Assembly (NCBI GenBank): GCA_016207245.1
Contig: JACQQA010000008.1
Location: forward strand, 1 to 58,551
Length of the DNA: 58,551 bases
Direction of reading: 5' to 3'
From: Candidatus Magasanikiibacteriota bacterium
Lineage (GTDB): Bacteria > Patescibacteriota > Patescibacteriia > Magasanikbacterales > UBA922
Under the pieces are notes generated by a model that saw nothing but the letters and a program-made list of their open reading frames with translations, was not told the DNA's origin and did no database searches. Shown piece after piece: positions 1,120 through 41,682 of this stretch. The first letter of the stretch is position 1. The number at the start of each line of letters is the position of its first letter. A program made the translations under genes and the position numbers.

Positions 1120-2109
1120 TCAATCCCCGCCGCGCTGTTTGCCGTGAAATTTTTTGTAAATATTCTTCAACTCTTTGTCAGTGATGTGCGTGTAAATTTG
1201 CGTGGTGGTGATTGACGAATGTCCCAGCATTGTTTGCACGCTTCGGATATCCGCGCCATTTTGCAATAAATCAGTCGCGTAAGAATGCCGCAAAGTATGC
1301 GGCGTTACCGGCTTGGTAATTCCCGCGGCCCGCGCGTATTTTTGCACCAATCTCTGCACTGACCTCGGCGTCAGGGGCAGAGTGCCGTCTGTTCTTTTAT
1401 CATGCGACACAAACAAATATTGATTCATATCCTGCCTCGTTTCCAGATATTTTTTCAGCCAATATCTCGCTTGCTCCGACAAAAAAACCACGCGCGATTT
1501 TCTGCCTTTGCCCATGATCGTAAACTCTTCTTTTTCCAAATTGACTTTATCTTTTTTCAGTCCCGCCAATTCAGACACGCGCAGACCGGTGGAAAACAAC
1601 AGCTCCAAAATCGCCTTATCGCGATATTTAATTAATTCGCCGTCTTTGTTCGTTTGTTTTCTGTTATCTGTATTTCCCTCGGCCTGAGCTCGGGACGAAG
1701 GCTGCATTCTGCTCGCCAACGGCGCTTCCAGCAATCTATTCAAATCACTCCCTTCCAAAAAACTCACTTCGCGGTCAGGCATTTTCATCAATTCAATTTT
1801 TTCCGCCGCCAGAGTCTTCACGTCTCGTTTGGCCAGATATTTTAGGAAAGAACGGAGAGCGATTAGATGATAATTCTGGGTGTTTTTTCTTAACGGGTCG
1901 CCGTGCGCATCAATGAGACGATTCAGCCACAGACGATACTGGCGCACATTTTCCGCCTCCAAACTTTCCGGTTTTTTTGCTTCGCCGAACCAGCCAATGA
2001 ATCTTTTTAAATAAAAATCATAATTTCTCACCGTCTGCTGACTGCGGTTTTTTTCTATTTCAAGATATTCTAGGAAGTCAATTAGGTATTTAGACAGTGT
2101 TTTAGACAT
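1120..2109 (-). CDS. xerD: XerC/XerD-family tyrosine recombinase (contains in-frame repeat insertion)
   Basis: TGLRVSEL, GKG, HTLRHSYAT, LGHSSITTTQIY catalytic motifs; XerC vs XerD not resolvable. Confidence 0.88.
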   Translation of the reverse strand: MSKTLSKYLIDFLEYLEIEKNRSQQTVRNYDFYLKRFIGWFGEAKKPESLEAENVRQYRLWLNRLIDAHGDPLRKNTQNYHLIALRSFLKYLAKRDVKTLAAEKIELMKMPDREVSFLEGSDLNRLLEAPLASRMQPSSRAQAEGNTDNRKQTNKDGELIKYRDKAILELLFSTGLRVSELAGLKKDKVNLEKEEFTIMGKGRKSRVVFLSEQARYWLKKYLETRQDMNQYLFVSHDKRTDGTLPLTPRSVQRLVQKYARAAGITKPVTPHTLRHSYATDLLQNGADIRSVQTMLGHSSITTTQIYTHITDKELKNIYKKFHGKQRGGD

Positions 2110-2118
2110 ACATGCTAT

Positions 2119-2214
2119 TCAGAAGATAGAATGCAGATAACAGAATACATCTGCGTTTGATTTTACCACCAACACCAGTTTGTTGCCTTCTGTTACCTGT
2201 ATTTTGCATTCTGA
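2119..2214. repeat. Heptamer inverted-arm cassette (MITE-like), copy 1
   Basis: cagaata/cagataa arms facing ctgttac/ctgtatt arms; core atctgcgtttgattttacc..caacacc shared with 40902-41020. Confidence 0.8.
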
Positions 2215-2229
2215 TATTGTACGACACTA

Positions 2230-2258
2230 TTGACAAACGGTCAAATTTGTGCTATACT
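2230..2258 (+). promoter_or_regulatory. Sigma70-like promoter
   Basis: TTGACA-17 bp-TATACT with extended TG. Confidence 0.65.
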
Positions 2259-2342
2259 ATTAATATTGATTACAGCAAAATAGTGTAGTTAATCAAAAAC
2301 TCCGCCCGGGGCGGATCCGCCTCGGGCGGAAAAAATAAAAAT

Positions 2343-2474
2343 ATGCAAAACAAAAATACGGGGGCGGAGACCCGACCAAACTCCGCGATTTCTTTGGTTT
2401 ATTATTACTTGTTAGCAGGCATCGCGCTGTTGGTGTCTGTTTTTTTATTCCTGCCTCGGGTGGCCGCGGGGTGA
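2343..2474 (+). CDS. Putative 43-aa single-pass membrane protein
   Basis: Manual translation MQNKNTGAETRPNSAISLVYYYLLAGIALLVSVFLFLPRVAAG, downstream of a consensus promoter. Confidence 0.5.
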   Translation: MQNKNTGAETRPNSAISLVYYYLLAGIALLVSVFLFLPRVAAG

Positions 2475-2573
2475 GCTTCAAATAGACATGTGGACAAGCG
2501 GGTTGCTCCGCTTTTCTTTTTAATCTATACTATAAATAGCCCGGTTGGGCGGATAATTTTTTAAGCAGATTTT

Positions 2574-3632
2574 ATGAAGTATTGGTTAATTTTTTCAATA
2601 ATGTTAGCGGTTTTGTGGTTTGCGCCGGTTCAAGCGCAAAGCGCGGAGCCGGCGGCGGACAGCGTTGACACTGTCGCGGGTTTGGAAGTTTCGGCAGAAC
2701 CGCCAGCGGTTGACGCAAGCGTGACAGCCAGCATAGTCGCTGAAGAACCTGAATTAGAAGGAATGGTGGTGGAACAGCCGAAAGAGGTGCCGTCAGTGTT
2801 CGGTTTGTGGTGGAAAGGCGTAAAAGAAAAAGTTTCAATCGGTTTAACTTTCAATCCAATTAAAAAAGCGGAAAAACAATTGCAATTCGCGGAAGAGCGC
2901 ATGAAGTTGGCGGAACTGATGGCGCAGAAATCTAAAGATCAAAAAGTGCAAGCGCGCATTCATCGCGCGATCGGCCAGGCGCAGGAAATGATGGAAAAAG
3001 TTGAGGCGCGTCGCGAACGTCTGTTACAGCAGAAAGACGAACAAGCCGCGCGTTTATTGCGCAATATCGCGACGCACCAAATCAGGCGCGAAGCGGTGAT
3101 GGATAAGATAGAAGAAAAACTTCCTGAGGGAGCAATAGAAAAATTTGATGAATTAAGAGATAAAGGAATGATGCAGGAGCGCCGTTTATTAAACGCGATT
3201 AATAACGAAAACGCGCCGGCCGAAGTGCGTGAACATTTGCAAGCGGTAAAAGACCGGATTGAAGCGCATGCTGAAGAAATTAAACTATTCCGCGAACGCC
3301 GCGCTGAACTAATGGATGAATTTAAAGCCGGCGATGAAGCGGTTAAAGAGCAAACAAAAGAAGAGATGAAAGAATTGCGCCAAGATCGCGTGGAAATGTT
3401 GAAAGACCGGCGCGAGGAGCGGGTTGAAAAAAATCAAAATGGCGAAGCGATTAAGCCGCCGCTGGAGAACAAGCCCGGCGCGATTATTAAATTAAAAGCG
3501 CTGAAACAAGAATTAAAAAATGAGTTTAAAGAAGAAAAGAACAAAGTTAAAAAAGAAATTGACGAACCGGATGATGATGTAAATGATGACGTGACAGATA
3601 ATAAAAATAACACTGTAAGTAGTCAGCTATAA
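2574..3632 (+). CDS. Secreted coiled-coil protein, DUF5667-like
   Basis: Signal peptide; LTFNPIKKAEKQLQFAEERM motif; E/K-rich helices. Confidence 0.75.
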   Translation: MKYWLIFSIMLAVLWFAPVQAQSAEPAADSVDTVAGLEVSAEPPAVDASVTASIVAEEPELEGMVVEQPKEVPSVFGLWWKGVKEKVSIGLTFNPIKKAEKQLQFAEERMKLAELMAQKSKDQKVQARIHRAIGQAQEMMEKVEARRERLLQQKDEQAARLLRNIATHQIRREAVMDKIEEKLPEGAIEKFDELRDKGMMQERRLLNAINNENAPAEVREHLQAVKDRIEAHAEEIKLFRERRAELMDEFKAGDEAVKEQTKEEMKELRQDRVEMLKDRREERVEKNQNGEAIKPPLENKPGAIIKLKALKQELKNEFKEEKNKVKKEIDEPDDDVNDDVTDNKNNTVSSQL

Positions 3633-3644
3633 ATTTTAATAAGT

Positions 3645-4043
3645 ATGAGAGAAAGCGGAAAAGAAAATCCAACATTGAGTGAAAGAAAAACTGCCAGTGT
3701 CATAGAAGTGGACGGCATTAAGCGGTGTTCCGCGGTTATAAGCGGCCGCGCGTGCAATGCCGCGGTTAAACCGCCCGGCAAGTTCTGTGAAAAATGCGGG
3801 GCGAAGTTAGTGTATAGCGACGGCAGAAGAGAAACACAATTTCTCGCGTCAGCCGCTGGTCGGGTTGAAATGAAACCCCCCGCAAGCACTGGTTCAGAAG
3901 TTGATCCCGATCCTGCCGTCAGATTGGACGCTGATGCGGTGAAAGCGGCGTTGAAAAAACCGCCTAAAGTTTGGGAAGATGAAGACGAAACAATGGCGTT
4001 CGACGTTGATGAAGATGGGAAAATTCACCGGAAGGGCAAGTAA
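3645..4043 (+). CDS. Hypothetical protein with zinc-ribbon-like cysteines
   Basis: C..C..FCEKCG; followed by terminator. Confidence 0.6.
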   Translation: MRESGKENPTLSERKTASVIEVDGIKRCSAVISGRACNAAVKPPGKFCEKCGAKLVYSDGRRETQFLASAAGRVEMKPPASTGSEVDPDPAVRLDADAVKAALKKPPKVWEDEDETMAFDVDEDGKIHRKGK

Positions 4044-4065
4044 ATACCACAACCGATTAATGTTT

Positions 4066-4095
4066 GCCACCGATTTTCAGTCGGTGGTTTTTTTA
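4066..4095 (+). terminator. Intrinsic terminator
   Basis: gccaccga-tttcag-tcggtggt followed by T tract. Confidence 0.75.
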
Positions 4096-4151
4096 TTGTT
4101 TTTTGTTGGCAAGTTTGTTATATTAGATTGGTTAAATATAAATAGAAGAAT

Positions 4152-4817
4152 ATGAACACGATCGTTTTTGACATTGAAACCGTAGCGCAGGATTTTAATC
4201 AGTTAGATAAAGCGAGGCAGGATTATTTATTGAAAGGCGCGGAAACCGAGGAGGAGAAAGAGAAGGCTGTGGATCAAATGGCTTTGTGGGCGCTGACCAA
4301 TCAGATTGTGGCAATCGGCATGCTGTCGGTTGAAACGCAAAAAGGCGCGGTATATTTTAATGGCGAATCGGGAAAAGAATTTGAGGAAAATAATATTAAA
4401 TATTGGGCGGGAAGCGAGAAGGAAATTTTAGAAAAGTTTTGGCAGGCGATTTCGCGCGCCGACAGATTCGTTACTTTCAACGGCCGCGGATTTGATTGTC
4501 CGGTGCTGATGCTCCGTTCAGCGATGCAAAAAGTTAAGCCGACAAAAAATTTAATGCCCTATCGCTACAGCGTTGAGGCGCATATTGATCTGCTGGAGCA
4601 GCTTACTTTTTATAATTCCGTTCGTAAATTTAATTTGGATTTTTTTTGCAAATCATTCGGCATTGAATCGCCGAAAGCGCAAGGTATTACCGGCCACGAT
4701 GTCGGGACCCTGTTCGCGGCCGGCGAGCGGGAGAAGATCGCTCGCTATTGCGCCGGTGATTTGGCGGCCACGCGCGAGTTATACTTGAGGTGGAAGGAAT
4801 ATATGCAGATGGGGTAG
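4152..4817 (+). CDS. PolB-like DEDDy 3'-5' exonuclease
   Basis: VFDIET, TFNGRGFD, YCAGD Exo I-III motifs. Confidence 0.88.
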   Translation: MNTIVFDIETVAQDFNQLDKARQDYLLKGAETEEEKEKAVDQMALWALTNQIVAIGMLSVETQKGAVYFNGESGKEFEENNIKYWAGSEKEILEKFWQAISRADRFVTFNGRGFDCPVLMLRSAMQKVKPTKNLMPYRYSVEAHIDLLEQLTFYNSVRKFNLDFFCKSFGIESPKAQGITGHDVGTLFAAGEREKIARYCAGDLAATRELYLRWKEYMQMG

Positions 4818-4839
4818 TTTATTGGTATAATATCAGTTG

Positions 4840-4903
4840 CCAGAATACAGATAACAGAATGCAGTGTGTGGGTGTATCGTGTTATCTGCATTCTGTATTC
4901 TGA
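4840..4903. repeat. Heptamer inverted-arm cassette
   Basis: cagaatacagataacagaatgca ... gttatctgcattctgtattctg. Confidence 0.8.
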
Positions 4904-4914
4904 ATCTTAATCGT

Positions 4915-5616
4915 ATGCATCACCCGCAGGTTAAACACACCATAGACATTTTTGAACGCATGTATCAGAACTTGCCGCCTTTGGTTCCGGAGTTGGTGGC
5001 GAGAGAAATGAAGCACGCGCTGGAACACTTGCGCGATGATGTGGAAGTCGGGATTGACGAAGTGGAAAACATCGCGGTTTCTTTGGGCAAGAAAATTTGG
5101 CCTTATTGGAAGGCTTTTGAAGAGCTTTGCAGTATGAGCCAAGGCCGGTTGGGCGAAAAATTTTTGTTGGGGCGTTTGCCCGCGCAATTAAAACAAAAAT
5201 ACGCGGAATTTAAGGAACACGGCGCGGATTATCATGATTTGCGTTCAGGTGGCGGGGCAAGTTATTTTTCTTTGGAAGAAAGACAGGAAATAACCAGAAT
5301 TTTAATAATGGTTGATCAAGAGGTAAAAGAGCATGTGAAACAGGCGGTATTAAGCGTTGACGAGAAAAAATATCAAGATTTGATAATTGATTTTCAGAAT
5401 ATTTTGGATGATATGGAAAAACGGCTAGACAGTTTGCGTTTGATGGCCGAAGACGAAGAAGAGCATCCGGAATTAGCCGAAGAAATTCGCGATAAAATTA
5501 AAACTTTTGAATTAGGCTTGTGTTTGCTCGGACCGAACACCAGACATCACGAACTTTTGAATGTGGATGATCATTTTGTGGAGAGAAGAGGGGCGAGGAG
5601 AGGGTTGCGAGTGTAG
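4915..5616 (+). CDS. Hypothetical helical protein
   Basis: Long ORF; start moved to ATG 4915 beyond the repeat. Confidence 0.7.
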   Translation: MHHPQVKHTIDIFERMYQNLPPLVPELVAREMKHALEHLRDDVEVGIDEVENIAVSLGKKIWPYWKAFEELCSMSQGRLGEKFLLGRLPAQLKQKYAEFKEHGADYHDLRSGGGASYFSLEERQEITRILIMVDQEVKEHVKQAVLSVDEKKYQDLIIDFQNILDDMEKRLDSLRLMAEDEEEHPELAEEIRDKIKTFELGLCLLGPNTRHHELLNVDDHFVERRGARRGLRV

Positions 5617-5714
5617 TAGACAAAACACATAACACAGTTAACAAAACACAATGAACTCATTTGTTAATTCTATGTGTTATGTTAATTGTGTTTTGATTTT
5701 TGTCGTTAATTATT

Positions 5715-6239: not shown

Positions 6240-6271
6240 TAGATATTCCGGAATCTCTTATTACTCATCAT

Positions 6272-7294
6272 TCATAATATTTCTGTTTTAACTTTAACAA
6301 ACTTCTTCACCATTTTCTCAATCCCGCTTCTATTCAACAGCCCGGTCTGCGCGCCGATTTGCTGGATGACGCCGGAAGAATTAGCTGTGCCCCATCGCAT
6401 TGCTTCAGCCAATGATTTGCCATTTATTACAGCTGATAAAAATCCGCTGGCGTAAGCGTCCCCGGCGCCGGTTTTGGAAATGATTTTTACATCATAAGCC
6501 GGCAGATGATAACGCTCGGTTGAATTAGCGGCATAAGAGCCGTTTTCGCCGTCAGTGATGACTGCGGTTTTTACGCCCAGTTTTAGGAGAGATGACAAAA
6601 GTGCCGCGACTGGATTGCTGGATTGCTTCGTCAGCGCCTCATCGGCGCTTCCTCGCAATGGCAGATCATCGCCAACTATTTTTTCCGCTTCTTCTTTGTT
6701 TACAAAAAGCAATTCAATCATCGGTAAAATGGGCTTGAATCCGGTCAAATCTTTTTTTATGTGGTATGAGCCCGGGTTGCAGGCAAAACGGCAATCAGGG
6801 TGTTTTTTTAAATAAACCAAAATTTGTTTTTGCAAAATTCGGAAATCATCGCCGACAGACGTGTAATACAGCCAGTCAGCCGCGGGTATGGCGGGCAGAG
6901 AATATTTGCGTTTGGCGTGGTAAGAAAGTATCGTGCGTTCCCCCAAATAGCTAAGAATAATTGAATAGCGGGTTTCGTTTTTTGGATTTAATCTGACAAA
7001 TTTTGTGTCAATGCCGATTTTATTAAACTCCTGTTTAATTATCGCGCCGTTGATATCATCGCCGAGTTCGGTAACGATCGCTGTTTTTAAACCCAGCGCG
7101 CGGCAACCGGCCGCGATGTTCGCCGCATTGCCACCGAGGGACTGAACAGTTTGGCTGATAGGAATTTTATCCGCGTAATTCAAACAAATCTGGCAGTGTT
7201 CTTTTTTCAGATCGCACTGCACCTGCGCGTCGTCAATCATCAGAATCGTATCCATGGTGCTGTCTCCAACGACAATGAGGTCAAATTTATTCAT
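6272..7294 (-). CDS. PfkB-family carbohydrate kinase (in-frame palindrome insertion)
   Basis: GGNAANIA, NKEEA, TGAGDAYASGF. Confidence 0.92.
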   Translation of the reverse strand: MNKFDLIVVGDSTMDTILMIDDAQVQCDLKKEHCQICLNYADKIPISQTVQSLGGNAANIAAGCRALGLKTAIVTELGDDINGAIIKQEFNKIGIDTKFVRLNPKNETRYSIILSYLGERTILSYHAKRKYSLPAIPAADWLYYTSVGDDFRILQKQILVYLKKHPDCRFACNPGSYHIKKDLTGFKPILPMIELLFVNKEEAEKIVGDDLPLRGSADEALTKQSSNPVAALLSSLLKLGVKTAVITDGENGSYAANSTERYHLPAYDVKIISKTGAGDAYASGFLSAVINGKSLAEAMRWGTANSSGVIQQIGAQTGLLNRSGIEKMVKKFVKVKTEIL

Positions 7295-7670: not shown

Positions 7671-9332
7671 CTATCTTTTTTCACCAGCCTTCTTTTGAAG
7701 AATAAATAATACGCCATTCGGGTTAGACGGCTCTATTTTTCTCATATCAACTACAGTATAACCAGCAAGCGGGCCGAAGCTTACCGCGTAATTTCGCGTG
7801 TTATTGGTAAAAATTTGATAAATCCACCATGGGGCGGTTTTCGGCCCGTTTTTTATTCCGGAATTTGCCGCCGGCCAATAACTATTCCAGCCATCCCACT
7901 CATATCCGCCGTCAATTTGTTCGGCCGATACGCCCTGTTTCAAAACCGAGTTCGCTAATTCCCAGCGCGCCTGATTCCACTTTAAATAATAATCAGTTTG
8001 AGTAATGTTATACGCGCCAATCGGGATTAAAATTAAAATTGCGACAAGATAATTAAATTTTAGATGTTTTAAATTTTGCGTTAGAGCGATTATCAACACC
8101 AAAAGCAGGGGCAAGAAGTAGCGGTCAAAACTTTTAAAAACTAATATCGGAATTAAGTAAAGCCAGCCGAACAGATAAATAAATCCAACCCTTCGTCCAC
8201 GCTCAGGGCGGGCATCCGCCGGTTCTTGATTGTTATGTCTTTTGCTTAAAATAAAAATCAACAAAGCAAGACTGGCGGCCGCGATTAAAGTAATTATCCC
8301 CCATACCCAGCTCGGCGCCAGCAGCTTTAAGTTGCCGGCAATTACGCTCTTCATCGGGCCAAGGCCGTAGAGCGAAATCATATTGTCCACGTAAGGAAAT
8401 TGCAAGTGATAAACTTGCCGTATCAACACGGCCGCGCTGACAAAAGACGCAAGCGAGAGCCAGAGCATTTTGTTTTTTAAATGCCGCAGATGCGCGAGTA
8501 ACCAACCGCTCGTTAATGGCAAAACGAATAGACCTAAATAAATCGGCGTATACCATAGCCACCATTTGATGTGTCCTAACAGCCGCGGAATAGTTTCTAT
8601 GGTATGAGCGCCGACGCTTTGCGGCAATAAATTATAAATAGTCAGATAAGAATAAATCGTGCCGCCGATTGCCAGAGGCAGGCCGAATCCAAGCAATAAA
8701 TTTTTGAAATGAATTTGTTTTATTTCTTTTAACGCGTATAATCCGGCGGCAATTAAAATTAAGATATTAGTTTGGCGAGTGTAGAAACCGATTATAGAAA
8801 AAAGAGAACCAACAAAAAACCACCGCCATTTTTTGTCCAGCACCTTCCAAGGGAAAGTGCTGGATTTGTTTTCAAAAGCCGAGTAATAAAAATAAATTGA
8901 CAGTATTAAAAACAGCAGAGCGGGGATGTCGGTCATGAAAGTGAAGGAGAGATTGAAAAAAATCGGATTGAGCCACAAAGTCAGCGCGCCGACAAAAGCG
9001 AGAGCGGGGCGATGAGTCAGTTTGACTAGAAACAGAAACAAGAGCAAGATTGAGATTAGCGCGATAGCCAGAGTTGAAATCCGCAAAAGGGTGAAAGAAA
9101 AACCAAAGATTTTTACCAAAGCAGCGCCATATAATATGGGGACATAGAAAGTCGGCCCGGCGTAGGGCATAAGACGAAACGAACCGGCTTCCACCCAATG
9201 TTTAATTGTGTCCGTGTGCACCCAGTCGTCATTCAGGGCAAACTCGCCTTTGGGGGAGATAAATAAAAACTGGGCTAAAAACAGCCCTATGAGTAAGCAG
9301 AAGAGGAGTTTGTTTTGGATAGGTTTGGACAT
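7671..9332 (-). CDS. GT-C (ArnT/PMT-like, family 39) glycosyltransferase
   Basis: LNDDW in first loop, FMTDIP, many TM helices, FDRY. Confidence 0.8.
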   Translation of the reverse strand: MSKPIQNKLLFCLLIGLFLAQFLFISPKGEFALNDDWVHTDTIKHWVEAGSFRLMPYAGPTFYVPILYGAALVKIFGFSFTLLRISTLAIALISILLLFLFLVKLTHRPALAFVGALTLWLNPIFFNLSFTFMTDIPALLFLILSIYFYYSAFENKSSTFPWKVLDKKWRWFFVGSLFSIIGFYTRQTNILILIAAGLYALKEIKQIHFKNLLLGFGLPLAIGGTIYSYLTIYNLLPQSVGAHTIETIPRLLGHIKWWLWYTPIYLGLFVLPLTSGWLLAHLRHLKNKMLWLSLASFVSAAVLIRQVYHLQFPYVDNMISLYGLGPMKSVIAGNLKLLAPSWVWGIITLIAAASLALLIFILSKRHNNQEPADARPERGRRVGFIYLFGWLYLIPILVFKSFDRYFLPLLLVLIIALTQNLKHLKFNYLVAILILIPIGAYNITQTDYYLKWNQARWELANSVLKQGVSAEQIDGGYEWDGWNSYWPAANSGIKNGPKTAPWWIYQIFTNNTRNYAVSFGPLAGYTVVDMRKIEPSNPNGVLFILQKKAGEKR

Positions 9333-13077: not shown

Positions 13078-13674
13078 ATGCCAAAAATCTACACCAAAAC
13101 CGGCGACAAGGGGGAGACATCGCTGTTGGGCGGGAAAAGGGTGAAAAAGTGTTGCTTGGAAATGGAAGCGATTGGCGAGGTTGATGAGCTGAACTCTTTG
13201 CTCGGGATGTTGATTGAAGAAATAATTGAAGATTTTCCCCGCGGAGCGAAACAATTGTTTGATGTTCAGCGACAACTTTTTGTTGTTGGTGCTCGTTTGG
13301 CAGGCGTGCAGATGTCAAAATCCAGTCGCACACCCTTCGGCTTGGTTCGACTCCGCTCACCACTGGTCGCTCAGGGCAAGCTTACAAGCTTGGAAAAATG
13401 GATTGACGCGATGGAAAAAGATTTGCCTCAGCTGAAAAATTTTATTATCCCCGGCGGATGCGAGGAAGCGGCCCTGTGTTTTTACATTCGCGCCGTCTGC
13501 CGCCGCGCGGAAAGACGAGTGATTGGGCTGGCAGAAAGTTATTCGGTTGATCCGGTGATAAAGCAATATCTTAATCGTTTGAGCGACTTGTTGTTTGTGT
13601 TGGGGAGATGGTTTAACAAAAAAACTACTCCTTTATCTCCGGAAACGTGTATCTTAACACCGCGCGATAAATAG
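13078..13674 (+). CDS. pduO: PduO-type ATP:cob(I)alamin adenosyltransferase (in-frame palindrome insertion)
   Basis: KIYTKTGDKGET, GEVDELNS, RAVCRRAER, YLNRLSD. Confidence 0.93.
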   Translation: MPKIYTKTGDKGETSLLGGKRVKKCCLEMEAIGEVDELNSLLGMLIEEIIEDFPRGAKQLFDVQRQLFVVGARLAGVQMSKSSRTPFGLVRLRSPLVAQGKLTSLEKWIDAMEKDLPQLKNFIIPGGCEEAALCFYIRAVCRRAERRVIGLAESYSVDPVIKQYLNRLSDLLFVLGRWFNKKTTPLSPETCILTPRDK

Positions 13675-14846: not shown

Positions 14847-17800
14847 ATGACAATTAAAATGTTTACCCGCCATGCTTTCCGACTAAATCGGAATGCGGGC
14901 GGGCATGTCAAATTATTTCTCACGATTTTTTCAGTGGGAATTTTTTTATTTTTAACTCCGGTCAAAGCCGCCGGCAGTGTAATTATAAATGAAATTTGTC
15001 CGACCGGCTGCGCGATGAGCGGTTATCAGTGGATTGAAATATATAATAACAGCGCTTCGGCGGCGGATTTAACCGGTTGGAAGTTTTGGGAAGGCGAAAC
15101 AAATCACGGTTTGGAATTGTCCGCTTCATCCACCCAACAAGATTATTTAATCGGCGCGGGCGAATACGCGGTAATAACGCAAAACGACGGGAATTTTTTT
15201 ATTGAACATCCGGCTGTCGCAGTTACCGTGTTTGACAGCTCATGGGGCACGTTAAATAAGGGCGGTGAAATGATTGGGTTGAAAGATGTTAGCGGAAATT
15301 TAGTTGAAGAGTTTAGTTACGCGGCGGTGGTTGATAATTCGTTAGAAAAAAAGAACCCATCGGTTGCCGCGAGCGAGGTCGGTAATTGGGCTGAGCATCC
15401 GAACTCGGATACGGCCGGTGTTCAAAATTATTGGTATCAGATCTTGCCGCAGATAGACGACGTCACAGATACCGCAGATAGCGACAGCCCGTCTGGTACA
15501 GATGCTGTTGCCGTCACCACAACCTACAGCGTGATTGGGAATTTCTCCAGCCTTGTTATAAACGAAGTAGTAAGCGATCCGGCATCCGGCGGAAAAGAAT
15601 GGATTGAATTATATAATTTTTCCACCTCAACGATTGATTTGGCCGGCTGGAAACTGTTTGACAATGTCGGCCAGATCGCGGCGCCGACTAACACCATTGC
15701 GGCGAGCGGATTTTTTGTGATTGAATTATCCAGCAGTAAATTAAATAACGATGGCGATATAATTATTTTAAAAAATACCGCGGATCAAATTGTTGATCAA
15801 GTCGCTTATGGCGTTTATGATGATGGAAACATCGCGGATAACGCGCCGGCAGTTTCTGATCCGCATTCAATTGTCCGTTCCGCTTCGAGCGGAGATACTG
15901 GCAATGACGCGAGCGATTGGTTTGAAACCACGACTTTGACAAAAAACGCTGTTAATCAAATCACTGCGCCGGTTCAGCCGGTTCAATCAGGCAGTTCGGC
16001 GGATTCGGCAAGCTCACCGCAGACAAGCTTAGGGCAGGGCGGAGGCGGGTCATCTGCTCCGCAGAATCAATCGGTTTCTTATCAGGCCGGCTTAGTGGTG
16101 ATAAACGAAATCGTATCAGACCCGACGGATGATTTTGATGAATTTATTGAGCTTTTTAATAATTCTAACGCGGTAATTGATTTGCGCCAATGGTGGCTGG
16201 AAGACGGCAGTGAGGCGCGGACGAATTTAGACGGCCAAATTTTACCGCATGGATTTTTTGTCGTTAATAATCCGGCGGGGAATTTAAATAATTCCGGCGA
16301 TATTATTTTTTTGTTTGACCCGAGCGGGAAAACCATTGACCAGCTTACTTATGGCGGTTGGAATGACGGCAGTTTAAACGACAACGCGCCGGCGGCCGAA
16401 GACCCGCTGTCTTTGGTAAGAAAAATTGACGGCCGCGACACGGATAATAATTATTATGACTTCGCGCTTACCGGACAAATTACCAGAGGCAGTGGAAATA
16501 AAATCGTCAGCCTAAATCCACAAGGAGAAAAAATTTCGGAGACGACAATAATTTCCTCGCCGATTATTCTCAACGAAGTTTTTCCCAATCCCAAAGGTTC
16601 GGATACAGCCGAGGAATTTATTGAATTGCGTAATTTAGGAGACAACCAAATTAATTTGAGCGGCTGGCAATTGGGCGATTCCAGTGAGAAAAAATACAAA
16701 ATTAATCAGGGGACCATCCCAGCCAAGGGCTATATCGCGTTCAAACGGGAATTAACCGGCATCGCTTTGAATAATTCCGGACAAGAAGAAATAAAATTAT
16801 ATAATCAAACCGGCGCGTTGGTTGATAAAATAAAATATGAAGGCGTCGCGGCGGAAGATCAGAGTTACGCGCGGCGCGAGGACGGTGTTTGGAAATGGAC
16901 GATTAAAACCACGATCGGCAAAGAAAATATTATTGAAGGCAAAAGCGCGGCGCCGGCGATTGTTTTGGAATTTAGTTCCGAAGCCTCATTAAACGAGGAA
17001 ATAATTTTTGACGCGTCCGATACCACTGATCCTGATGGAGACGCGATTAAATTCAGTTGGGATTTTGGCGACAGCCCTTCGACTCTCCTTCAACAAGCTC
17101 AGGATCGCTCAGGGCAAGCGGGCGATACGATTAAACACATATATAACAAAATTGGCGAGTATTCGGTGAGATTAACAGTCACTGACTCAGCTGGCAACAC
17201 GGCGGAGAAAATAGTGAAGGTGTCTGTGTTGGGAGATTATGTTGGTGGTTGGTTGGATTTGGCCGGGCAGATTTTAATATCTGAAATTTTACCTAACCCG
17301 GTTGGTTCGGATTCGGCCGAGTTTATTGAATTATATAATCCAGCCGACACGGCAGTTGATTTATCAGATTATAAAATAGACGATGAGGATGGCGGTTCGC
17401 GGCCTTATGTTTTTCCGGAAGGAACAATTATTGAGCCGAGGAGTTTTTTGCTGTTAGAGAGGAATAAGACTGGTTTAGCTTTAAATAATTCAAACGACGC
17501 GGTTAGGATTTTAGATCAAGATAATAATATTGTTGTTGAGATTGAATATGATAACGCGGCGGAAGGGGCGAGTTACATATATGATGTTGAAAGCGGAGAT
17601 TGGGTCTGGACAACGGAGATTACGCCCGGGACTGACAATATAATAAACATGCGAAACTCCGAAAGCACTGCGAAAATGCGAACAGCGGAAGACGCGAGTG
17701 TGGCGATTGGCGCGATGAAGAAAGAGAAAAAAGTGATTGATGTCGCGTTGGATAAAATTAGGGACAATGATGTTGGCGACCGAGTTAAATTTACCGGAAT

Positions 17801-18503: not shown

Positions 18504-18633
18504 AAAAAATGTTGGAAATGGTATAATGTAAATGAGTTTGTAAGTGGGTAAGTAAATAAGTGTGTAAGTGAGGAATTGTTATATTGAAAATTAATAATGT
18601 ATTCTGTTATCTGCATTCTGCATCTTGCAAAGT

Positions 18634-34538: not shown

Positions 34539-35624
34539 ATGGAACATGTTGCGCATATCAGTAAAAACAAACAAACATTGGAATTGCGGTTCGCGATTTT
34601 GAAATTGATCCGCGAATGGTTTTGGTCGCAAGGATTTACCGAAGTTGAAACGCCGAATATCGTCAAAGTCCCCGGGCAAGAACCATATCTTTCGCCGATG
34701 CCGGTAAAGTTGCATAATGAGCAAGGCGAGGAATTTTTTGGTTATCTCCATACTTCGCCGGAATATACCATGAAAAAAATGCTGGCGGCCGGTTTTGACA
34801 AGATTTTTTCTTTGGGGAAATGCTACCGCGATTACGAAAGTTTCGGCGGAACGCATAATCCGGAATTTACGATGCTGGAGTGGTATAGGGTGGAGAGTGA
34901 TTATAAAAAAATAATGGAGGATGTGGAGGAGTTGATCGGGTTTATTATACAGAAGTTGATGGAACATAGAACATTGAACATGGAACACCGAACGAAAGAT
35001 CTTTGCTCCATGCTCAATGCTCAATGTTCAATACGGGTTAGTATGAGCGATTTATGGGAGAAATTTGTCGAAGTGGATTTGGATGAGTGTCTGACGAGCG
35101 AGGCCATGTTGAGATTGTGCAGAGAAAAAAAATATGATGCGAAAGACAGCGAGAGCTATGAGGATTTGTTTTATCGGATATTTTTGAATGAGATTGAGCC
35201 GAAATTGAAAGAAGTGGGCGGTATAATTATTTATGATTATCCGGCAAAACTGGCGGCGCTGTCGCGTTTATCCGCGTCAGATCCGCGTTATGCCGAACGG
35301 TTTGAGGTTTATGTGAACGGTATAGAGTTGGCTAACGCTTTTTCCGAACTGACTGACACGGATGAGCAATTAAAACGTTTAAAAGAGGAACAAGAATTGA
35401 GACGAAAGCTCGGCAAAGAGGTTTATAATATAGATGAAGAATTTCTGTTAGCGGTCGGACAAATGCCAAAGTCAGCTGGCATTGCCTTGGGAGTTGATCG
35501 GCTGGTTCAGATCATTGCGGCCCTTCGGCATGGCTCCCCTCGGCCTGAGCTCGGGACGAAGGCAGGGCAAGTTTGCAAAAACATTGACGATGTGATAACA
35601 TTGCCAGCGAGTAAACTATTTTAA
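34539..35624 (+). CDS. epmA: EF-P lysine aminoacylase (two in-frame repeat insertions)
   Basis: YLHTSPEYTMKK, HNPEFTMLEWY, ERFEVY..ELANAFSEL, GIALGVDRL; adjacent to efp. Confidence 0.93.
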   Translation: MEHVAHISKNKQTLELRFAILKLIREWFWSQGFTEVETPNIVKVPGQEPYLSPMPVKLHNEQGEEFFGYLHTSPEYTMKKMLAAGFDKIFSLGKCYRDYESFGGTHNPEFTMLEWYRVESDYKKIMEDVEELIGFIIQKLMEHRTLNMEHRTKDLCSMLNAQCSIRVSMSDLWEKFVEVDLDECLTSEAMLRLCREKKYDAKDSESYEDLFYRIFLNEIEPKLKEVGGIIIYDYPAKLAALSRLSASDPRYAERFEVYVNGIELANAFSELTDTDEQLKRLKEEQELRRKLGKEVYNIDEEFLLAVGQMPKSAGIALGVDRLVQIIAALRHGSPRPELGTKAGQVCKNIDDVITLPASKLF

Positions 35625-35625
35625 T

Positions 35626-36198: not shown

Positions 36199-36264
36199 TA
36201 AGTTGGTAAGTGAATAAGTGTGTAAGTAAAAATCCGCTGAGAGGCGGATTTTATTTGTAAGTGT

Positions 36265-36552: not shown

Positions 36553-36625
36553 AGAAATTGTGAGAGACTGGACTGCTTCGTCCCCCGCCATGGCGGGGTC
36601 CTCGCAATGACGGCGCGATTCACCG

Positions 36626-37165: not shown

Positions 37166-37166
37166 A

Positions 37167-37427
37167 TTAAAACTGAAATATATTTGAAATCCAGTTGCTG
37201 TTGAATAAAACAACCGGAGTTTGCCAGTCTATTTCAATCAGCAATTGTTGGGTAAAATACAGAGTGAGAATAGTCAAGGAAAAAATAAAAAAAGAGATGA
37301 TAAAACTCACCAGTGTAAATGAGGCGGTTTCCAGAACGTGATAAAAGTTTAAAATTGAAAATACAGCAAAAATCGCCAAAAAAATCAGGTAGGCGAAGAG
37401 GAAAAAGTAGAGAGGAACGGTTAGCAT
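37167..37427 (-). CDS. Small membrane protein
   Basis: Two TM helices, coupled to downstream gene. Confidence 0.7.
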   Translation of the reverse strand: MLTVPLYFFLFAYLIFLAIFAVFSILNFYHVLETASFTLVSFIISFFIFSLTILTLYFTQQLLIEIDWQTPVVLFNSNWISNIFQF

Positions 37428-37429
37428 AC

Positions 37430-37536
37430 GAAATGTCTAATGTCTAATTTCTAATTACAAATAAAATTTCCAACGTCAATTTTTATTGGGCATTTGTCAT
37501 TTTATTAGAAATTTGACATTTGGAATTAGAAATTTT
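37430..37536. repeat. Heptamer inverted-arm cassette (tgtctaa/tttctaa type)
   Basis: aatgtctaatgtctaatttctaatt ... attagaaatttgacatttggaattagaaattt. Confidence 0.75.
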
Positions 37537-38587
37537 AAAGCAGTTCTTCTTGCGGTCTATATTTGTTTTCCACATTTAAGTGTTTGTACGCTTCTCTCGT
37601 TGCTTTTCTTCCTCTCGGCGTGCGTTCCAGCATACCGATTTGCATCAAATATGGCTCATAGACCGATTCAATCGTATCCATTTCCTCGGCAATCGCGGCG
37701 GACAGAGTGTTGAGGCCGACTGGACCGCCGGAAAATTTGTGGATAATCGCGTGGAGAATTTTTCGGTCAACTTCATCCAGCCCGTGCTGGTCAACATTAA
37801 GCATATCAAGAGCTGATTGGGCGGCTTGTTTATGTATTCTACCACCAAATCTGACTTCCGCGAAATCACGCACTCGTTTTAACAAGCGATTGGCGACGCG
37901 CGGGGTGCGGCGGGAGCGCGCGGCGATTAGGGAAACCGCCTCGGGTTCAATTTCCGCGGACAAGATTTTAGCATTGCGGTTAACGATTTTTTCAATATCT
38001 TCCGGCTCATAAAAATTCAAATGGAAAACATGGCCGAACCGATCGCGCAACGGGCTGGAGAGCAAACTGATTTTGGTTGTGGCGCCGATCAGCGTAAATT
38101 TATTCAAGGGCATGCGCATCGTGCGCGCGGCCGGGCCTTTGCCGATAATGATATCAACCGCGAAGTCCTCCATTGCCGCGTATAAAACTTCTTCAATGGT
38201 TTTGTTCATGCGATGGATTTCGTCAATAAATAAAACATCACCCTCTTCCAAGTTAGACAAAATTGCCGCCAGGTCGCCCACTCGTTCCAGCGCCGGACCG
38301 GCCGTTACTTTAATGTTGCCGCCCATTTCTCTGGCGATAATATTTGCTAAAGTTGTTTTTCCCAGTCCGGGGTTGCCGTAAAGCAAGATATGTTCAATCG
38401 GTTCATTGCGTTTTTGCGCGGCTTCAATGGAAATATTTAGCGGTTCTTTGATCTGGTTTTGGCCGACAAAATCAACCAGTGTTTGGGGACGGAGGGTAAC
38501 CTCTATTTTTTCTTCGCCGTCTTCTGTCTTGGCGCTAACGATTCTAGGAGCAAGATTTTCGTCTAATTGGTAGATTTCTTCGTCCAT
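37535..38587 (-). CDS. ruvB: Holliday junction helicase RuvB
   Basis: LRPQTL, GNPGLGKTT, FIDEIHR, YEPYL, RTPRGR. Confidence 0.97.
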   Translation of the reverse strand: MDEEIYQLDENLAPRIVSAKTEDGEEKIEVTLRPQTLVDFVGQNQIKEPLNISIEAAQKRNEPIEHILLYGNPGLGKTTLANIIAREMGGNIKVTAGPALERVGDLAAILSNLEEGDVLFIDEIHRMNKTIEEVLYAAMEDFAVDIIIGKGPAARTMRMPLNKFTLIGATTKISLLSSPLRDRFGHVFHLNFYEPEDIEKIVNRNAKILSAEIEPEAVSLIAARSRRTPRVANRLLKRVRDFAEVRFGGRIHKQAAQSALDMLNVDQHGLDEVDRKILHAIIHKFSGGPVGLNTLSAAIAEEMDTIESVYEPYLMQIGMLERTPRGRKATREAYKHLNVENKYRPQEELL

Positions 38588-38734
38588 AATGCTTGTATTG
38601 TACAGCAAGAAAGTGGTGTTGACAAGGTTGATGATTTGTTGTATGATATATTATTCTTCTCATGGTGGGAGGGATACCTGTCCCGGGTATAGGGAAAACT
38701 TTTGGGCGATAAAAAAGCCCAGAGGAGGTTCGTC

Positions 38735-39511
38735 ATGGTTAGTCCATTGGTGAGAGTAAAGGATTATACAATGGGGCAGTTGGCGGCTTTGGTTCACAAG
38801 GTGGAGCGTGCGGGAGCCACTGTGGACGAGGTGCTGGCAGATTCCAAACTGCTGAAGGTGGTCGGTGCCGATGACATTTCGGCTCCATACTTCACCCGCC
38901 TCGTTACCGAAGAGTCGATCGTGTCGGCTCTCAGCCATGCGATGTCGGAGCAGGAGGCGGGAAAGCTGTGCGAGGCCGGACTGAAATGCGCGGTGGATCA
39001 CTTCGACTATCACGGCTCCCCGTTCTGGACGTCTCGCGCCGGCTTCACACTGAGGTCGCACGCGGTCAAGCTGGGATCCTGCTACCAGGATTTTCAGTAC
39101 TTGCATGGCTGGGACTTTGAGGACCGTCCCACCACTGACTCGGTGCTGTTCTGTCCGCCCCGTCTGGTTCCTGACAGTTTGGGCAAGAACGTGGACAAGC
39201 AGATGGTCTTGCTGGCCAAACTGCGGGAGAAGTTCGGTCTGCCGGCTTACTTCTTCAACTCCTTCGGCGAGTCGTCCACGCTGTCTGGCATCATCCTGAC
39301 AAACTACAACCAGACAGGTGAATGCGTCCCGTTGAATGGGCTGTGGGTGCGCACCAACACCCGCCTCCGCGGCGGTGGCGGCCGGCTCGGTCTCGGCGGC
39401 TTCAGCCGCGATGGCTTGGGCTGCGACGACTGGGGCTGGGGCGGTGCCGGCAGCAGCATCGGTTGTCTCGCTCCGGGGGTGGTGGACTTGGGGAAGTCCG
39501 CCAACCTGTAG
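38735..39511 (+). CDS. Putative DGR target (variable) protein
   Basis: AGGAGG SD; C-terminal WVRT..RLGLGGF..GLGCDDWGWGG..SSIG built from A-poor NNC/NNT codons; RT fragment downstream. Confidence 0.68.
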   Translation: MVSPLVRVKDYTMGQLAALVHKVERAGATVDEVLADSKLLKVVGADDISAPYFTRLVTEESIVSALSHAMSEQEAGKLCEAGLKCAVDHFDYHGSPFWTSRAGFTLRSHAVKLGSCYQDFQYLHGWDFEDRPTTDSVLFCPPRLVPDSLGKNVDKQMVLLAKLREKFGLPAYFFNSFGESSTLSGIILTNYNQTGECVPLNGLWVRTNTRLRGGGGRLGLGGFSRDGLGCDDWGWGGAGSSIGCLAPGVVDLGKSANL

Positions 39512-39561
39512 AACGTGTGGTGTATTTGGTACCAAACGGTACCCTGTACACCCGAACCCCT

Positions 39562-39598
39562 GAACCCCCGTGCTTCGCGCCGGGGGTTCTTGTCTTTT
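39562..39598 (+). terminator. Hairpin/terminator after DGR target
   Basis: gaacccccg...cgggggttc followed by T-rich tract. Confidence 0.65.
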
Positions 39599-39602
39599 AT
39601 AT

Positions 39603-39782
39603 AACAACCGCCGTGTTTTGCGGACGAAAACAAAAAAGAGAATGTTTGCAAGAATAGAAATCCATTCGACTAAAGGAAATCTGTGTTCTTATTTAGGATT
39701 AGTGAAGCATGGAAATTGTTTTGAGTTGAAGCAGAGAATTTTGGAAAGTCAAAAATCTGCTGACGCGGGTTTTAGCTGTTGA
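39603..39782 (+). pseudogene. C-terminal fragment of DGR-type reverse transcriptase
   Basis: RRVLRTKTKKRMFARI..SYLGLVKHGN matches my recollection of the RT thumb-region motif; no upstream RT domains. Confidence 0.65.
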
Positions 39783-39885
39783 TGGAAGTCGCCGTCATTA
39801 ATATTTTTTTCGGGCTGGTTTTGAGCGGAGATGGTGCGCTTGTTTTCATTGTCAAATATTCTATAGTGGTCTGTTGTGTGTTTGG

Positions 39886-40890
39886 TTATGAAAGGGATCC
39901 TTCATCCGCTGTGGCGGATTCAGGATGGAGCTCACTGTGACGCTCGCTCCACTTATTAATATACTCAATCGCGCTTAAGGCGGCAGTGACGCCGTGGCCG
40001 GCGGAGATGGCGATTTGTTTGAAAGGGATGTTCGTAACATCGCCGGCGGCGAAGATTCCCGGGCAGTCGGTCTGGCATTTGATGTTCACTTCAATTTCGC
40101 CGAGCGGATTTTTTTTGCCGCAGGCGACAAAATCAGAATTTGGCAGCTGGCCGATATGCACCATTACGCCGTCAACCGCGATTTCTTTGGTTTTATTTTT
40201 CGCGGTATCAAGATATTTTATGCCGGAGACATTTTCTTTTCCCAGAATTTCTTTCGTGTCAGCGCCGTAAATTATTTCAATATTCGGCAATGATTTAACT
40301 TTTTCAATTAAAATATCTTCGCCTTTGGGAAATCCGCCTTTACTTTCTCTATTATTAGGATAGCGGGTAATTAAAAAAAGTTTTTTCGCGATGCCGGACA
40401 TCATCAGCGCCGATTCAAGAGCGGCATTGCCCGCGCCGACGGTTACCGTTGTCTTGCCTCTAAAAAGCGGGCCGTCGCAGGTGGTGCAATAAGTAACGCC
40501 TTTGCCGCGCAATTCTTTTTCTCTCGGGATATTCAGCGTCCGCGGATGAATGCCGCTTGCCACGAGCACGGCTTTGGTTTTATAGATTTTTTCTTTGCCA
40601 TTGGCATCGCGCGCGGTGACGATGTGGTGGTTTTTTTCTGTTTTGATTCCGATTATTTGATAACCGATGTCAGTCGGCACGCTGTAAGATTTGACATGAT
40701 TGTACATATCCTGCGCCAGTTTGAAGCCGTTGGTTTCAATCTGTCCGGGCCAATTATTTATAATTCCGGATTGCGCGACCTCGCCGCCAATGTCTTTGGT
40801 GACGATGATTTGATTCAAATTTCTTCTCGCGCCGTAGATGGCTGCCGAACAGCCGGCCGCCGCCGCGCCAATGATTACGAGGTCGTACAT
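39886..40890 (-). CDS. trxB: Thioredoxin reductase-like FAD oxidoreductase
   Basis: YCTTCDG, VGAGNAA, FAAGDVT; C-terminal extension from a palindromic element. Confidence 0.88.
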   Translation of the reverse strand: MYDLVIIGAAAAGCSAAIYGARRNLNQIIVTKDIGGEVAQSGIINNWPGQIETNGFKLAQDMYNHVKSYSVPTDIGYQIIGIKTEKNHHIVTARDANGKEKIYKTKAVLVASGIHPRTLNIPREKELRGKGVTYCTTCDGPLFRGKTTVTVGAGNAALESALMMSGIAKKLFLITRYPNNRESKGGFPKGEDILIEKVKSLPNIEIIYGADTKEILGKENVSGIKYLDTAKNKTKEIAVDGVMVHIGQLPNSDFVACGKKNPLGEIEVNIKCQTDCPGIFAAGDVTNIPFKQIAISAGHGVTAALSAIEYINKWSERHSELHPESATADEGSLS

Positions 40891-40901
40891 AGTTTTACAT
40901 G

Positions 40902-41020
40902 ATACAGAATACAGATAACAGAATACATCCGCGTTTGATTTTACGCCCCAACACCCGCTCGTTGCATTCTGTTATCTGGTAACTGTATTTGTGCAACGTT
41001 ATCTGGTTTCTGTATTCTGT
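40902..41020. repeat. Heptamer inverted-arm cassette (MITE-like), copy 2
   Basis: Near-identical core to 2119-2214; overlaps rpe 3' end. Confidence 0.8.
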
Positions 41021-41682
41021 CCGATTATTAATTTCATTTGCTTGATGTTATCCACAGGTTTGCCCACCTTAAACGTGGCGCTGCCCGGGCAGATGGCATT
41101 CACGCCGGTTTTAACTATATCCGGCAGATTGGATTCGTTCACCGCGCCGTCAATTTCCGTGAATATTTTAGGATATTTAGTCGTGAATTTTGTGATTTTA
41201 GTTAACACTTCTTTAATCAGCGACTGGCCCTGAAAACCCGGGTGAACGCCCATGAACATTACCGCGTCAAGTTGATTTAAAAACGGCTCAATCGCGCTGA
41301 TGGGGGTGTCGGGATTGAGCACGATGCCGACTTGCCAGTTATTTTTTTTTGCAAAATTAATTATTTTAGAAAGGGATCCCTCGGCTCCCTCCGGTCGCTC
41401 GGGATGACAACCTTGCGACTCGTAATGAAATAGTACCCGTTTAACTTGTTTTACGCCAATCCATTTTTTTAATTCAGCGAGCGGGTCGGCAACCATCAAA
41501 TGCAGTTCAACATTAAGTTTGCGCAGTTTTTTTACCACTGTCGGATTAGCCCAAGTCACGTTTGGCACGAATTTTCCATCGGCGATATCAAGCTGAATTT
41601 GCTTAACCGAATCACCCAGCCCTTTCATTTGCTGTAAAAATTGTTCTTCGGTTTGGACCAGGACGGAGGGGATTATTTCCAT
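40999..41682 (-). CDS. rpe: Ribulose-phosphate 3-epimerase (in-frame palindrome insertion)
   Basis: DIADGKFVPN, ELHLMV, MGVHPGFQGQ, IDGAV. Confidence 0.93.
   Translation of the reverse strand: MEIIPSVLVQTEEQFLQQMKGLGDSVKQIQLDIADGKFVPNVTWANPTVVKKLRKLNVELHLMVADPLAELKKWIGVKQVKRVLFHYESQGCHPERPEGAEGSLSKIINFAKKNNWQVGIVLNPDTPISAIEPFLNQLDAVMFMGVHPGFQGQSLIKEVLTKITKFTTKYPKIFTEIDGAVNESNLPDIVKTGVNAICPGSATFKVGKPVDNIKQMKLIIGQNTETR

Follow-up and report, generated by a model that had tools for sequence, protein, structure and literature searches.

The window analysed here is a 58,551-nucleotide (nt) stretch of a Candidatus Magasanikiibacteriota bacterium (contig JACQQA010000008.1 of GenBank assembly GCA_016207245.1), in which short repeats lie in frame within protein genes, are specific to particular lineages and are partly nested in one another. 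It is contig C8 of a 12-contig, 687,150-base assembly (hereafter G000) with a marker-gene completeness of 84%; related genomes are 0.7-1.4 Mb in size, and the sequencing runs that contain the DNA of the window are groundwater metagenomes. The original prediction for this DNA had proposed that at least eight of its protein genes are interrupted in frame by small palindromic elements of a single active family, comparable to those of Rickettsia. All eight inserts lie where they had been placed, all in open frames and all in hosts with Pfam support, namely, an integrase/XerD-type recombinase, PfkB, a PMT_2 glycosyltransferase, Cob_adeno_trans (pduO), LTD+PKD (the lamin-tail protein), a class II tRNA-synthetase-like protein (epmA-type), Pyr_redox_2 (trxB) and Ribul_P_3_epim (rpe) (Table 1). 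The inserts measure 19-51 nt, and seven of them are internal to the gene, the trxB one being a C-terminal extension.

Table 1. Repeats of the window, with positions on the forward strand.
Feature	Position	Strand	Description
xerD-type recombinase insert	1661..1711	-	copy of an AT-rich word repeat enclosing a 27-nt GC-rich unit (1676-1702)
pfkB insert, family A	6613..6663	-	ends ..CATTGCGAGG.. and ..GACGAAGCAATCC.. around a variable GC hairpin centre
PMT_2-type glycosyltransferase insert, family B	8189..8209	+	antisense to the gene, translated ..RPERGRRV..
pduO-type adenosyltransferase insert, composite family B (PFGLVRLRSPLVAQGK)	13333..13380	+	
lamin-tail protein PKD-domain insert	17075..17118	+	family B with a second B-like unit nested in the centre
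epmA-type gene insert	35521..35571	+	family B-like ends around an xerD-type 27-nt unit (35537-35563)
trxB C-terminal tail, hairpin element (..ATCCTGAA-hairpin-TGAAGGATCC..)	39889..39927	-	
rpe insert, family I (TCATCCCGAGCG..CGAGGGATCCC)	41370..41410	-	translated CHPERPEGAEGSL(S)
Family A element upstream of the DUF1294 gene (intergenic)	36568..36611	-	absent from the original prediction
Head-to-head family A pair at the contig end	58423..58516	.	the same ~105-nt pair begins or ends several contigs
AT-rich word repeat	2118-2213, 4832-4904, 18596-18627, 40896-40992, 41691-41724, 42247-42336, 46309-46362, 54916-54951		

The positions of the inserts fit tolerant places in the encoded proteins. 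The xerD insert (approximately residues 133-150) lies in the linker that joins the SAM-like to the catalytic domain (Pfam domains 10-98 and 159-312), the pduO insert is gapped in the alignment to the closest solved chain (~10 extra residues overall), the epmA insert directly follows the end of the Pfam core (residues 9-328), and the trxB tail lies at or past the end of its core. The AlphaFold2 model of rpe has a mean predicted local distance difference test score (pLDDT) of 90.5, and the insert is its only low-confidence stretch, with residues 91-100, between the strand 80-86 and the helix 99-113, averaging 55. In the lamin-tail host, the PKD_4 match covers residues 701-793 for a model of 85 positions.

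Seven of the eight inserts recur elsewhere in the genome. The 27-nt core of the xerD insert is found (27/27 nt) within the epmA insert and at C2:74682-74708 (contig:position), and the epmA insert has a 38/38-nt copy at C2:74678-74715 that extends across the nesting junction. The pfkB insert has an identical copy at C11:15044-15091 (48/48 nt), the pduO insert matches C2:55923-55969 at 45/47 nt, and the rpe insert is found at 40/42 nt in the TGT gene on C5; the best other copies of the lamin-tail and glycosyltransferase inserts match at 33/38 and 21/23 nt, respectively. In a contig of run X5, from a groundwater study other than that of the likely source samples, the 40-nt lamin-tail composite lies in unrelated flanks (loose ends at 17074/17114). 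The exception is the trxB tail, with genome matches of 13 nt only; its ends recur upstream in a Coxiellaceae locus (L120). Copies of 27-48 nt occur at 95-100% identity in unrelated genes, and such near-identity would point to recent copying or to homogenisation.

Families of short repeats and their modular build

The ends originally proposed to be shared by most inserts, CCYTCG..CTCRGG, are present at six of the eight sites, but pfkB and trxB have other ends. The motif exceeds chance expectation in the window: CTTCG N{3,33} CTCRGG occurs eight times versus 0.93 expected, a count reached by 0/100 shuffles, and six of the eight matches fall at the claimed sites, whereas CCTCG N{3,33} CTCRGG occurs three times versus 0.75 expected, with 3/100 shuffles reaching three. 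Rather than the single family of hairpins first envisaged, however, there are at least four families, which we denote A, B, C and I, together with independent centre modules; the 27-nt unit that forms the xerD and epmA cores and the trxB tail fall outside all four. In the window, pfkB carries an element of family A, the glycosyltransferase, pduO, lamin-tail and outer epmA elements belong to family B, rpe carries family I, and family C is not represented. Strict patterns defined for family A (TCATTGCGAG..CGAAGCAATCC), family B (CCCTTCG..GCTCAGGG), family C (GTCATYCCC-hairpin-GGGRAYCC) and family I (the ends given for rpe in Table 1) match 48, 30, 19 and 8 copies in the genome, respectively, 105 in total; 10 shuffled genomes each yield 0-1 matches per family. 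As the patterns overlook the xerD unit, the epmA core and the trxB tail, these copy numbers are lower bounds. At its gathering thresholds, Rfam reports 10 tRNAs in the window and no family covering the repeats.

Families A, C and I are built on a common plan that consists of a TGTC tag, a stem starting with A-T, conserved purine-rich (G/A) unpaired positions, a centre and a CC(AG) tail. In families A and I the centre is exchangeable: 25 different centres are found among the 48 copies of family A, and the centre CCCGCCATGGCGGG occurs in 10 stand-alone copies as well as within family I copies. Two of the stand-alone hairpins (56206-56219 and 42888-42901) lie in the first 30 codons of predicted open reading frames (ORFs; 56127-56960 and 42830-43303), probably upstream of the true starts. 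Nesting is evident in the xerD insert, which is present as predicted over its full extent, but the GC-rich unit accounts for only 27 nt of it; the flanks (1661-1675 and 1703-1711) belong to a different, AT-rich CAGAATGCAGA..CAGATAACAGAA word repeat. In the epmA element and in the 38-nt copy of it on C2, the inner unit joins the outer one at the same junction, and composites are therefore copied as units. Head-to-head pairs are formed by family A (58423/58484 in the window, C3:15038/15099 and C7:10103/10166) and by family C (C12:35401/35442 and C3:7828/7869).

The description of the inserts as hairpins is borne out by folding energy for two of them, with z-scores of -2.3 to -4.7 (pfkB, -2.8 to -3.8, except for the plus strand as RNA at -1.6; trxB, -2.3 to -4.7), but not for the other six, which, at -1.3 to +0.9, score like mononucleotide shuffles on both strands, as DNA and as RNA, under a nearest-neighbour folding model that may undervalue G.A pairs. 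Most B-type copies are poor hairpins by energy.

In-gene copies and their turnover among congeners

Counting as well inside a gene only those copies that lie at least 30 codons inside an ORF of at least 150 codons, we identified 38 strict-motif copies in 35 genes of the 687-kb assembly (24 of family B, eight of A, four of C and two of I), in line with the high density of in-frame inserts foreseen for this small genome; repeats are in frame in at least 1/20 of its conserved genes. Pfam domains are recognised in 34 of the 35 hosts, including 5/5 in the window and 29/30 outside (E<=1e-8), the latter being mostly tRNA synthetases, RNA-modification, translation and cell-wall enzymes. Family B is largely genic, with 25 of its 30 copies in ORFs of at least 100 codons, one in a shorter ORF, one at an edge and three intergenic, and family A has 16 copies in ORFs of at least 100 codons, nine in shorter ORFs, five at edges and 18 in intergenic regions. 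Repeat-derived peptides are thus found in at least 35 conserved genes of a ~0.7-Mb genome, including those for many tRNA synthetases, a release factor, LepA, FtsK, DNA polymerase III delta and pyruvate kinase, and selfish micro-repeats therefore contribute visibly to the variation of protein length in ultra-small bacteria.

The in-gene copies use all three reading frames and are strongly biased in orientation: 33 of the 38 are in the sense direction compared to 22.8 expected from the stop-free frames per strand (Poisson-binomial P = 2e-4), including 21/24 copies of family B and 8/8 of family A. Of the 30 B copies, 23 are on the G-rich strand, and sense orientation is found for 22 of the 25 that lie in ORFs of 100 codons or more; replication and transcription disagree in five B cases, four of which follow the gene, too few to decide between the two causes. 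We also examined 42 of the 43 B copies from eight related genomes, leaving out the 23 of one congener (G001). Of these, 18 are in no open frame of 200 codons or more, and the other 24 are in such frames, 19 of them sense and five antisense; since some copies in a second congener (G002) are orthologous to those of G000, the orientation counts are partly dependent, and without G002 they amount to 14 sense and four antisense. G022 and G002, which belong to different genera, have a B insert at the same position in one and the same gene. Three B copies outside confident genes (C3:26961, C3:27871 and C3:34745) have complementary flanks followed by a T run, resembling intrinsic terminators.

Comparison with the two congeners, which are syntenic with G000 at 77-90% nt identity, supports the predicted lineage specificity of the insertions: each aligned site differs either in presence/absence or in the centre of the element, and every measured length difference is a multiple of three. 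Four inserts are found only in G000 or are absent from the only congener aligned. The rpe insert (+30 and +24 nt relative to G001 and G002) is lacking from 13/13 orthologues aligned, and the epmA insert is absent from G002 (approximately +51 nt, read by eye from an alignment in which mafft had misaligned the region). The pduO insert is restricted to G000 (+24/+30 nt versus the congeners); G001 carries a different AT-rich word repeat and G002 neither. The xerD insert adds 27 nt relative to both congeners, which have other AT-rich word repeats at this place; with all three species differing in their word repeats at the same spot, the GC-rich unit is nested in another repeat. In the orthologues of xerD and pduO (L021-L036), each congener has its own word repeat (e.g. 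ACGAACT.., ACTTACA..) at the same codon positions; the two linkers are landing pads for repeats of more than one kind.

The remaining sites are shared to various extents. G000 and G001 have in common the glycosyltransferase insert, which differs by one substitution (compared with G001 only), and the lamin-tail insert, which is present in G001 in a 28-nt un-nested form and is missing from G002 (+12/+33 nt versus the congeners); the empty site of G002 and the end of the element both contain GGCAA. The trxB tail and the element upstream of the DUF1294 gene are shared with G002 only: at trxB, G001 stops at ..KWKE*, 21 codons before the end in G000, whereas G000 and G002 read through the element, and upstream of DUF1294, G000 and G002 have different centres and G001 no element. 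The initial ORF call had placed this last element inside the DUF1294 gene, which is ruled out by the congener alignment, where the conserved start (the true ATG) is downstream of it. Finally, pfkB carries a family A element at the same site in all three congeners with three different centres (+24 nt versus G002 and -6 nt versus G001). Judging from near-identical copies and from differences among congeners, the repeats may be active, as originally proposed for a single family.

Small GIY-YIG genes and resemblance to known hairpin repeats

Consistent with the original prediction that the mobilising enzyme is not encoded in the window, no candidate was found on C8. Elsewhere, G000 encodes four small GIY-YIG proteins (46-71 bits to the Pfam GIY-YIG model; weak matches only to NCBIfam), and two of these genes are bracketed by inverted copies of the repeats, C12:26535-26831 by family C hairpins and C9:77910-78200 by family A elements. 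The association extends to relatives: family A copies bracket GIY-YIG matches on C4 of G030 and C9 of G002, in G006 family I copies flank a GIY-YIG gene on either side, in G036 they are downstream of such a gene, and trxB-type copies are found on both sides of a GIY-YIG gene in G022. Small GIY-YIG genes are present in 29 of the 41 related genomes of the order that we surveyed. Across 23 loci, CYYGAG..CGARRG motifs occur six times within 300 nt of GIY-YIG genes (13.6 kb) versus twice in the remaining 52 kb, an ~11-fold higher density.

The other two GIY-YIG genes of G000 adjoin tRNA genes, and one of them has a B-like motif upstream. A GIY-YIG gene directly downstream of a tRNA gene is found in four genomes (C5:148344-148800 in G000; L199-L201 in relatives), and at these loci TTCGACTC..-type motifs follow the 3' end of the tRNA. 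The GIY-YIG gene of G000 spans C5:148344-148691. In G001 and G024, a CCTGAGCG..GTCGAAGG element is located just before the start codon, and two of the four tRNA-adjacent GIY-YIG genes contain an internal stop.

Two published systems provide the closest parallels. The CGTC-tagged class of repetitive extragenic palindromes (REPs), which includes Neisseria dRS3 and the Rickettsia palindromic elements (RPEs) RPE-4 and RPE-6 (CGTC-4 and CGTC-1, respectively), is defined by an unpaired 5' tag (CGTC, TGTC or CCTC), a stem of 8-9 bp with two A-T pairs first, a loop of 4-5 nt, a 3' tail near CCA and a predominance of head-to-head pairs; intragenic copies are known, often in genes for tRNA synthetases and nucleic-acid enzymes, and no dedicated transposase is described (Di Nocera, De Gregorio & Rocco 2013; PMC3733652). 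Family C fits every feature: the tag is TGTC, the stem has 8 bp and starts A-T/T-A, the loop measures 4 nt, the tail is CCA(G), and copies form head-to-head pairs. The agreement of the other families is partial: the TGTC tag is found in family C and most A and I copies, is TGCC in the pfkB copy and is lacking in family B, so that it is absent from five of the eight window sites, and the stem and loop are matched by family C alone, families A and I having a 5-bp stem starting with A-T, unpaired G/A positions and a 6-32-nt centre. The CCAG tail of A and C and the head-to-head pairing also match, whereas B copies are single and family B shows no defining feature of the class, having only a 4-bp CCCT/AGGG end. 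The host here is a genome of the candidate phyla radiation (CPR) type, a group absent from the hosts named in the accessible part of PMC3733652.

The second parallel concerns the enzyme. Ssn proteins (clade cd10448) are small GIY-YIG proteins that cut single-stranded DNA (ssDNA) beside NTS-type hairpins, and the layout NTS-ssnA-NTS has been compared to that of an insertion sequence (Chenal et al. 2025; PMC11893778). Family C corresponds to the NTS consensus except for T instead of C in the tag, and small GIY-YIG genes are likewise bracketed by inverted repeats in our genomes. The degenerate SRM search sequence given in PMC11893778 has 10 matches in G000, eight of them family C, compared to 0-6 in 10 shuffles, and it misses all eight window sites and every A, B and I copy. 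By word counts, the terms 'intragenic' and 'Patescibacteria' are absent from PMC11893778. Literature searches with the motifs and their peptides as text strings gave either no match or, among the 20 of 303 matches listed, only unrelated papers (seemingly primer matches), figures, logos and bioRxiv supplements being unsearchable, and among the papers listed we found none on CPR or Patescibacteria dealing with REPs, GIY-YIG proteins or intragenic repeats of this kind.

The comparison to Rickettsia is supported. As in RPEs, the repeats are in frame in conserved ORFs and absent from orthologues, and three families have the build of CGTC-tagged REPs. The likeness to RPEs as such is by description: both are selfish palindromes that keep the frame of conserved genes in a reduced genome and are tolerated in surface regions. 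RPE-1, described by Ogata et al. in 2000, is reportedly ~100-150 bp long; relative to this description, the inserts here are shorter and fall into several families. Judging from motif build, we would describe families A, C and I as CGTC-tagged REP/Ssn-related motifs and the system as a whole as a variant of known selfish hairpin repeats.

Spread of the inserts and competing explanations

Taken as a whole, the data are, in our view, probably best explained if the inserts are gene-less single copies of related, modular short-repeat families that spread via a GIY-YIG nuclease system. The autonomous form would be a cassette of ~0.4-0.5 kb comprising a hairpin, a GIY-YIG nuclease gene (~90-110 codons) and an inverted hairpin, with head-to-head pairs and single copies as its non-autonomous derivatives. 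The nuclease would recognise the hairpin extruded in ssDNA and cut beside it, and repair or copying at the breaks would spread or exchange copies, often into the centre of an existing repeat. With ~90% of the genome coding, most landing sites are genes, and the survivors would be only those insertions that are in frame in linkers, loops, tails and other tolerant places. We infer that the GIY-YIG proteins cut and mobilise these sites and that the system includes family B.

Several observations weigh against this explanation. Family B, the commonest type in the window, has neither the TGTC tag nor the A-T stem and folds no better than shuffled sequence. Its tie to GIY-YIG genes is weak, with B-like motifs near 4/23 loci, and in G038, which has seven B copies, the query used finds no GIY-YIG match. 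The nearest solved relatives of the GIY-YIG proteins are UPF0213 proteins, and to our knowledge no transposition chemistry has been described for GIY-YIG nucleases. The identity among copies could be explained by gene conversion instead of new insertion. No target-site duplication or common target was apparent in the few clean pairs of filled and empty sites, the flanks often being too diverged; three B copies lie between TTATCT..TATCTC words, which are themselves another repeat. Metagenome contigs from four DNA runs, which are blind to rare variants, include no empty-site allele and no exact joint skipping an element. Gene positions beyond the window, finally, are greedy ORF calls.

The alternative that fares best, which we consider possible but clearly less likely, is that short units are copied as patches between sites that bear repeats or microhomology, by gene conversion or templated break repair, with a site once seeded being overwritten again and again. 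The conserved ends and divergent centres of the pfkB and DUF1294-upstream elements in congeners, the number of centres in family A, the different repeats at the same codon positions of xerD and pduO in each congener and the GGCAA common to the lamin-tail empty site and element end all suit this model. The first arrival at repeat-free sites such as epmA and rpe, however, still requires an insertion step, and patch copying overlaps with spread through GIY-YIG nucleases more than it excludes it.

Less likely again, and in our judgement improbable, is that the repeats are kept because they serve the cell at the level of RNA or protein, for instance as flexible linkers, terminators or sites of pausing or RNA processing; their abundance would then be due to selection and not to selfish spread. 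This would account for the sense bias and its echo in relatives (19 versus 5), the three terminator-like B copies and the B insert at the same site in two genera. Yet three frames are used, so that no single peptide is conserved, the sites differ between congeners, the bias of families A and B has opposite structural polarity, and 31 of the 41 related genomes are devoid of B copies.

The mechanism suggested by the original prediction, mobilisation by a REP-associated tyrosine transposase (RAYT) or IS200-type HUH transposase, is largely refuted and strikes us as very improbable. There is a likeness in principle, since in the GTAG REP/RAYT and IS200-IS605 systems, too, short hairpins are thought to be handled as ssDNA by an enzyme whose gene they flank. 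Moreover, G000 does encode one IS200-type Y1 transposase (C4:30498-30947; 107.6 bits to Pfam and 83.8 bits to NCBIfam transpos_IS200) flanked by inverted GTAG-tagged hairpins. These hairpins, however, are found at that locus only (two copies each per strand count), the amplified families A, B, C and I lack a GTAG tag, and the protein scores 26 bits against the REP_Tyr_transpos model, for which the cut-off is 80. With its Y1 gene and with GTAG-tagged plus GTCCC..GGGAC hairpins at either end, the region C4:30400-31050 looks like a complete IS200-type element present in a single copy.

An assembly or binning artefact joining foreign repeats into genes has a negligible probability: Logan contigs do break at the xerD, pfkB and pduO elements, with chimeric joints starting at 1702, but the frames are open, separately assembled congeners carry elements at the same sites, and individual contigs of run X3 span the sites in the glycosyltransferase, pduO and lamin-tail genes without differences.

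The distribution of family B raises a broader question. In the survey of the 41 genomes, in which reversed patterns of families A and B gave no match in any genome, family A is present in 12 (44, 10 and 75 copies in G000, G001 and G002) and family B in 10 (30, 23 and 7 copies in the same three congeners). The exact 19-base core of family B (CCCTTCGRCAAGCTCAGGG) is found in at least 126 stretches when one genome per species is considered, and an extrapolation from 1/64 of the collection yields ~59,000 stretches versus ~9 by chance (our own arithmetic). The matches listed come from Bacteroidota, Cyanobacteria, Proteobacteria, Actinobacteria, Chloroflexota, Acidobacteriota, Planctomycetota, several CPR groups and others, and among them the core often occurs in inverted pairs or nested in GTCAT-type elements. 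Where the surrounding sequence has less than 50% G+C, the core is inside an open frame in 4/36 of the listed occurrences, and a genic location is therefore a feature of the present lineage. We did not find the core in the published literature, where it could appear in unsearchable figures, logos or supplements. A speculative and, in our opinion, rather doubtful extension is that the B core is a pan-bacterial, horizontally spreading micro-element recognised by an uncharacterised branch of small GIY-YIG single-strand nucleases. The complementary strand of the core could fold as a 4-bp stem closed by tandem G.A pairs, which would be the structure that these nucleases recognise, and entry of B into the non-template strand of transcribed genes would explain the bias for the sense strand. 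In CPR bacteria, which have almost no intergenic space, B would then steadily supply essential proteins with new loop peptides.

The elements extend the Ssn/SRM system to forms missed by the published search motif and provide pairs of substrate and enzyme for testing. New to the subject are the site histories in congeners, the orientation bias within genes, the swapping and nesting of centres, the failure of the SRM motif and the identity of the B core across phyla. On the practical side, the repeats are a nuisance, because assemblies break at them and spurious ORFs and false homologies arise from them.

Other features of the window include the AT-rich repeats of 7-base words (CAGAATG/CAGATAA/CAGAATA), which are mostly intergenic and often form inverted pairs around a spacer; the genome contains 33 copies of CAGATAACAGAA, and one AT-rich copy is in frame in xerD, where it hosts the GC-rich unit. 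The contig starts with a perfect 55-nt direct repeat (1-55/86-140) that overlaps a tRNA gene region (tRNA 124-194, minus strand) and may have arisen when an inserted element left behind a duplicate of the tRNA end. The region 50000-54000 has a G+C content of 0.57-0.61 compared to ~0.45 and holds a 793-codon ORF (50941-53322), and the next gene (53565-54779) is bracketed by two near-identical 34-nt hairpins (53444-53477 and 54889-54922).

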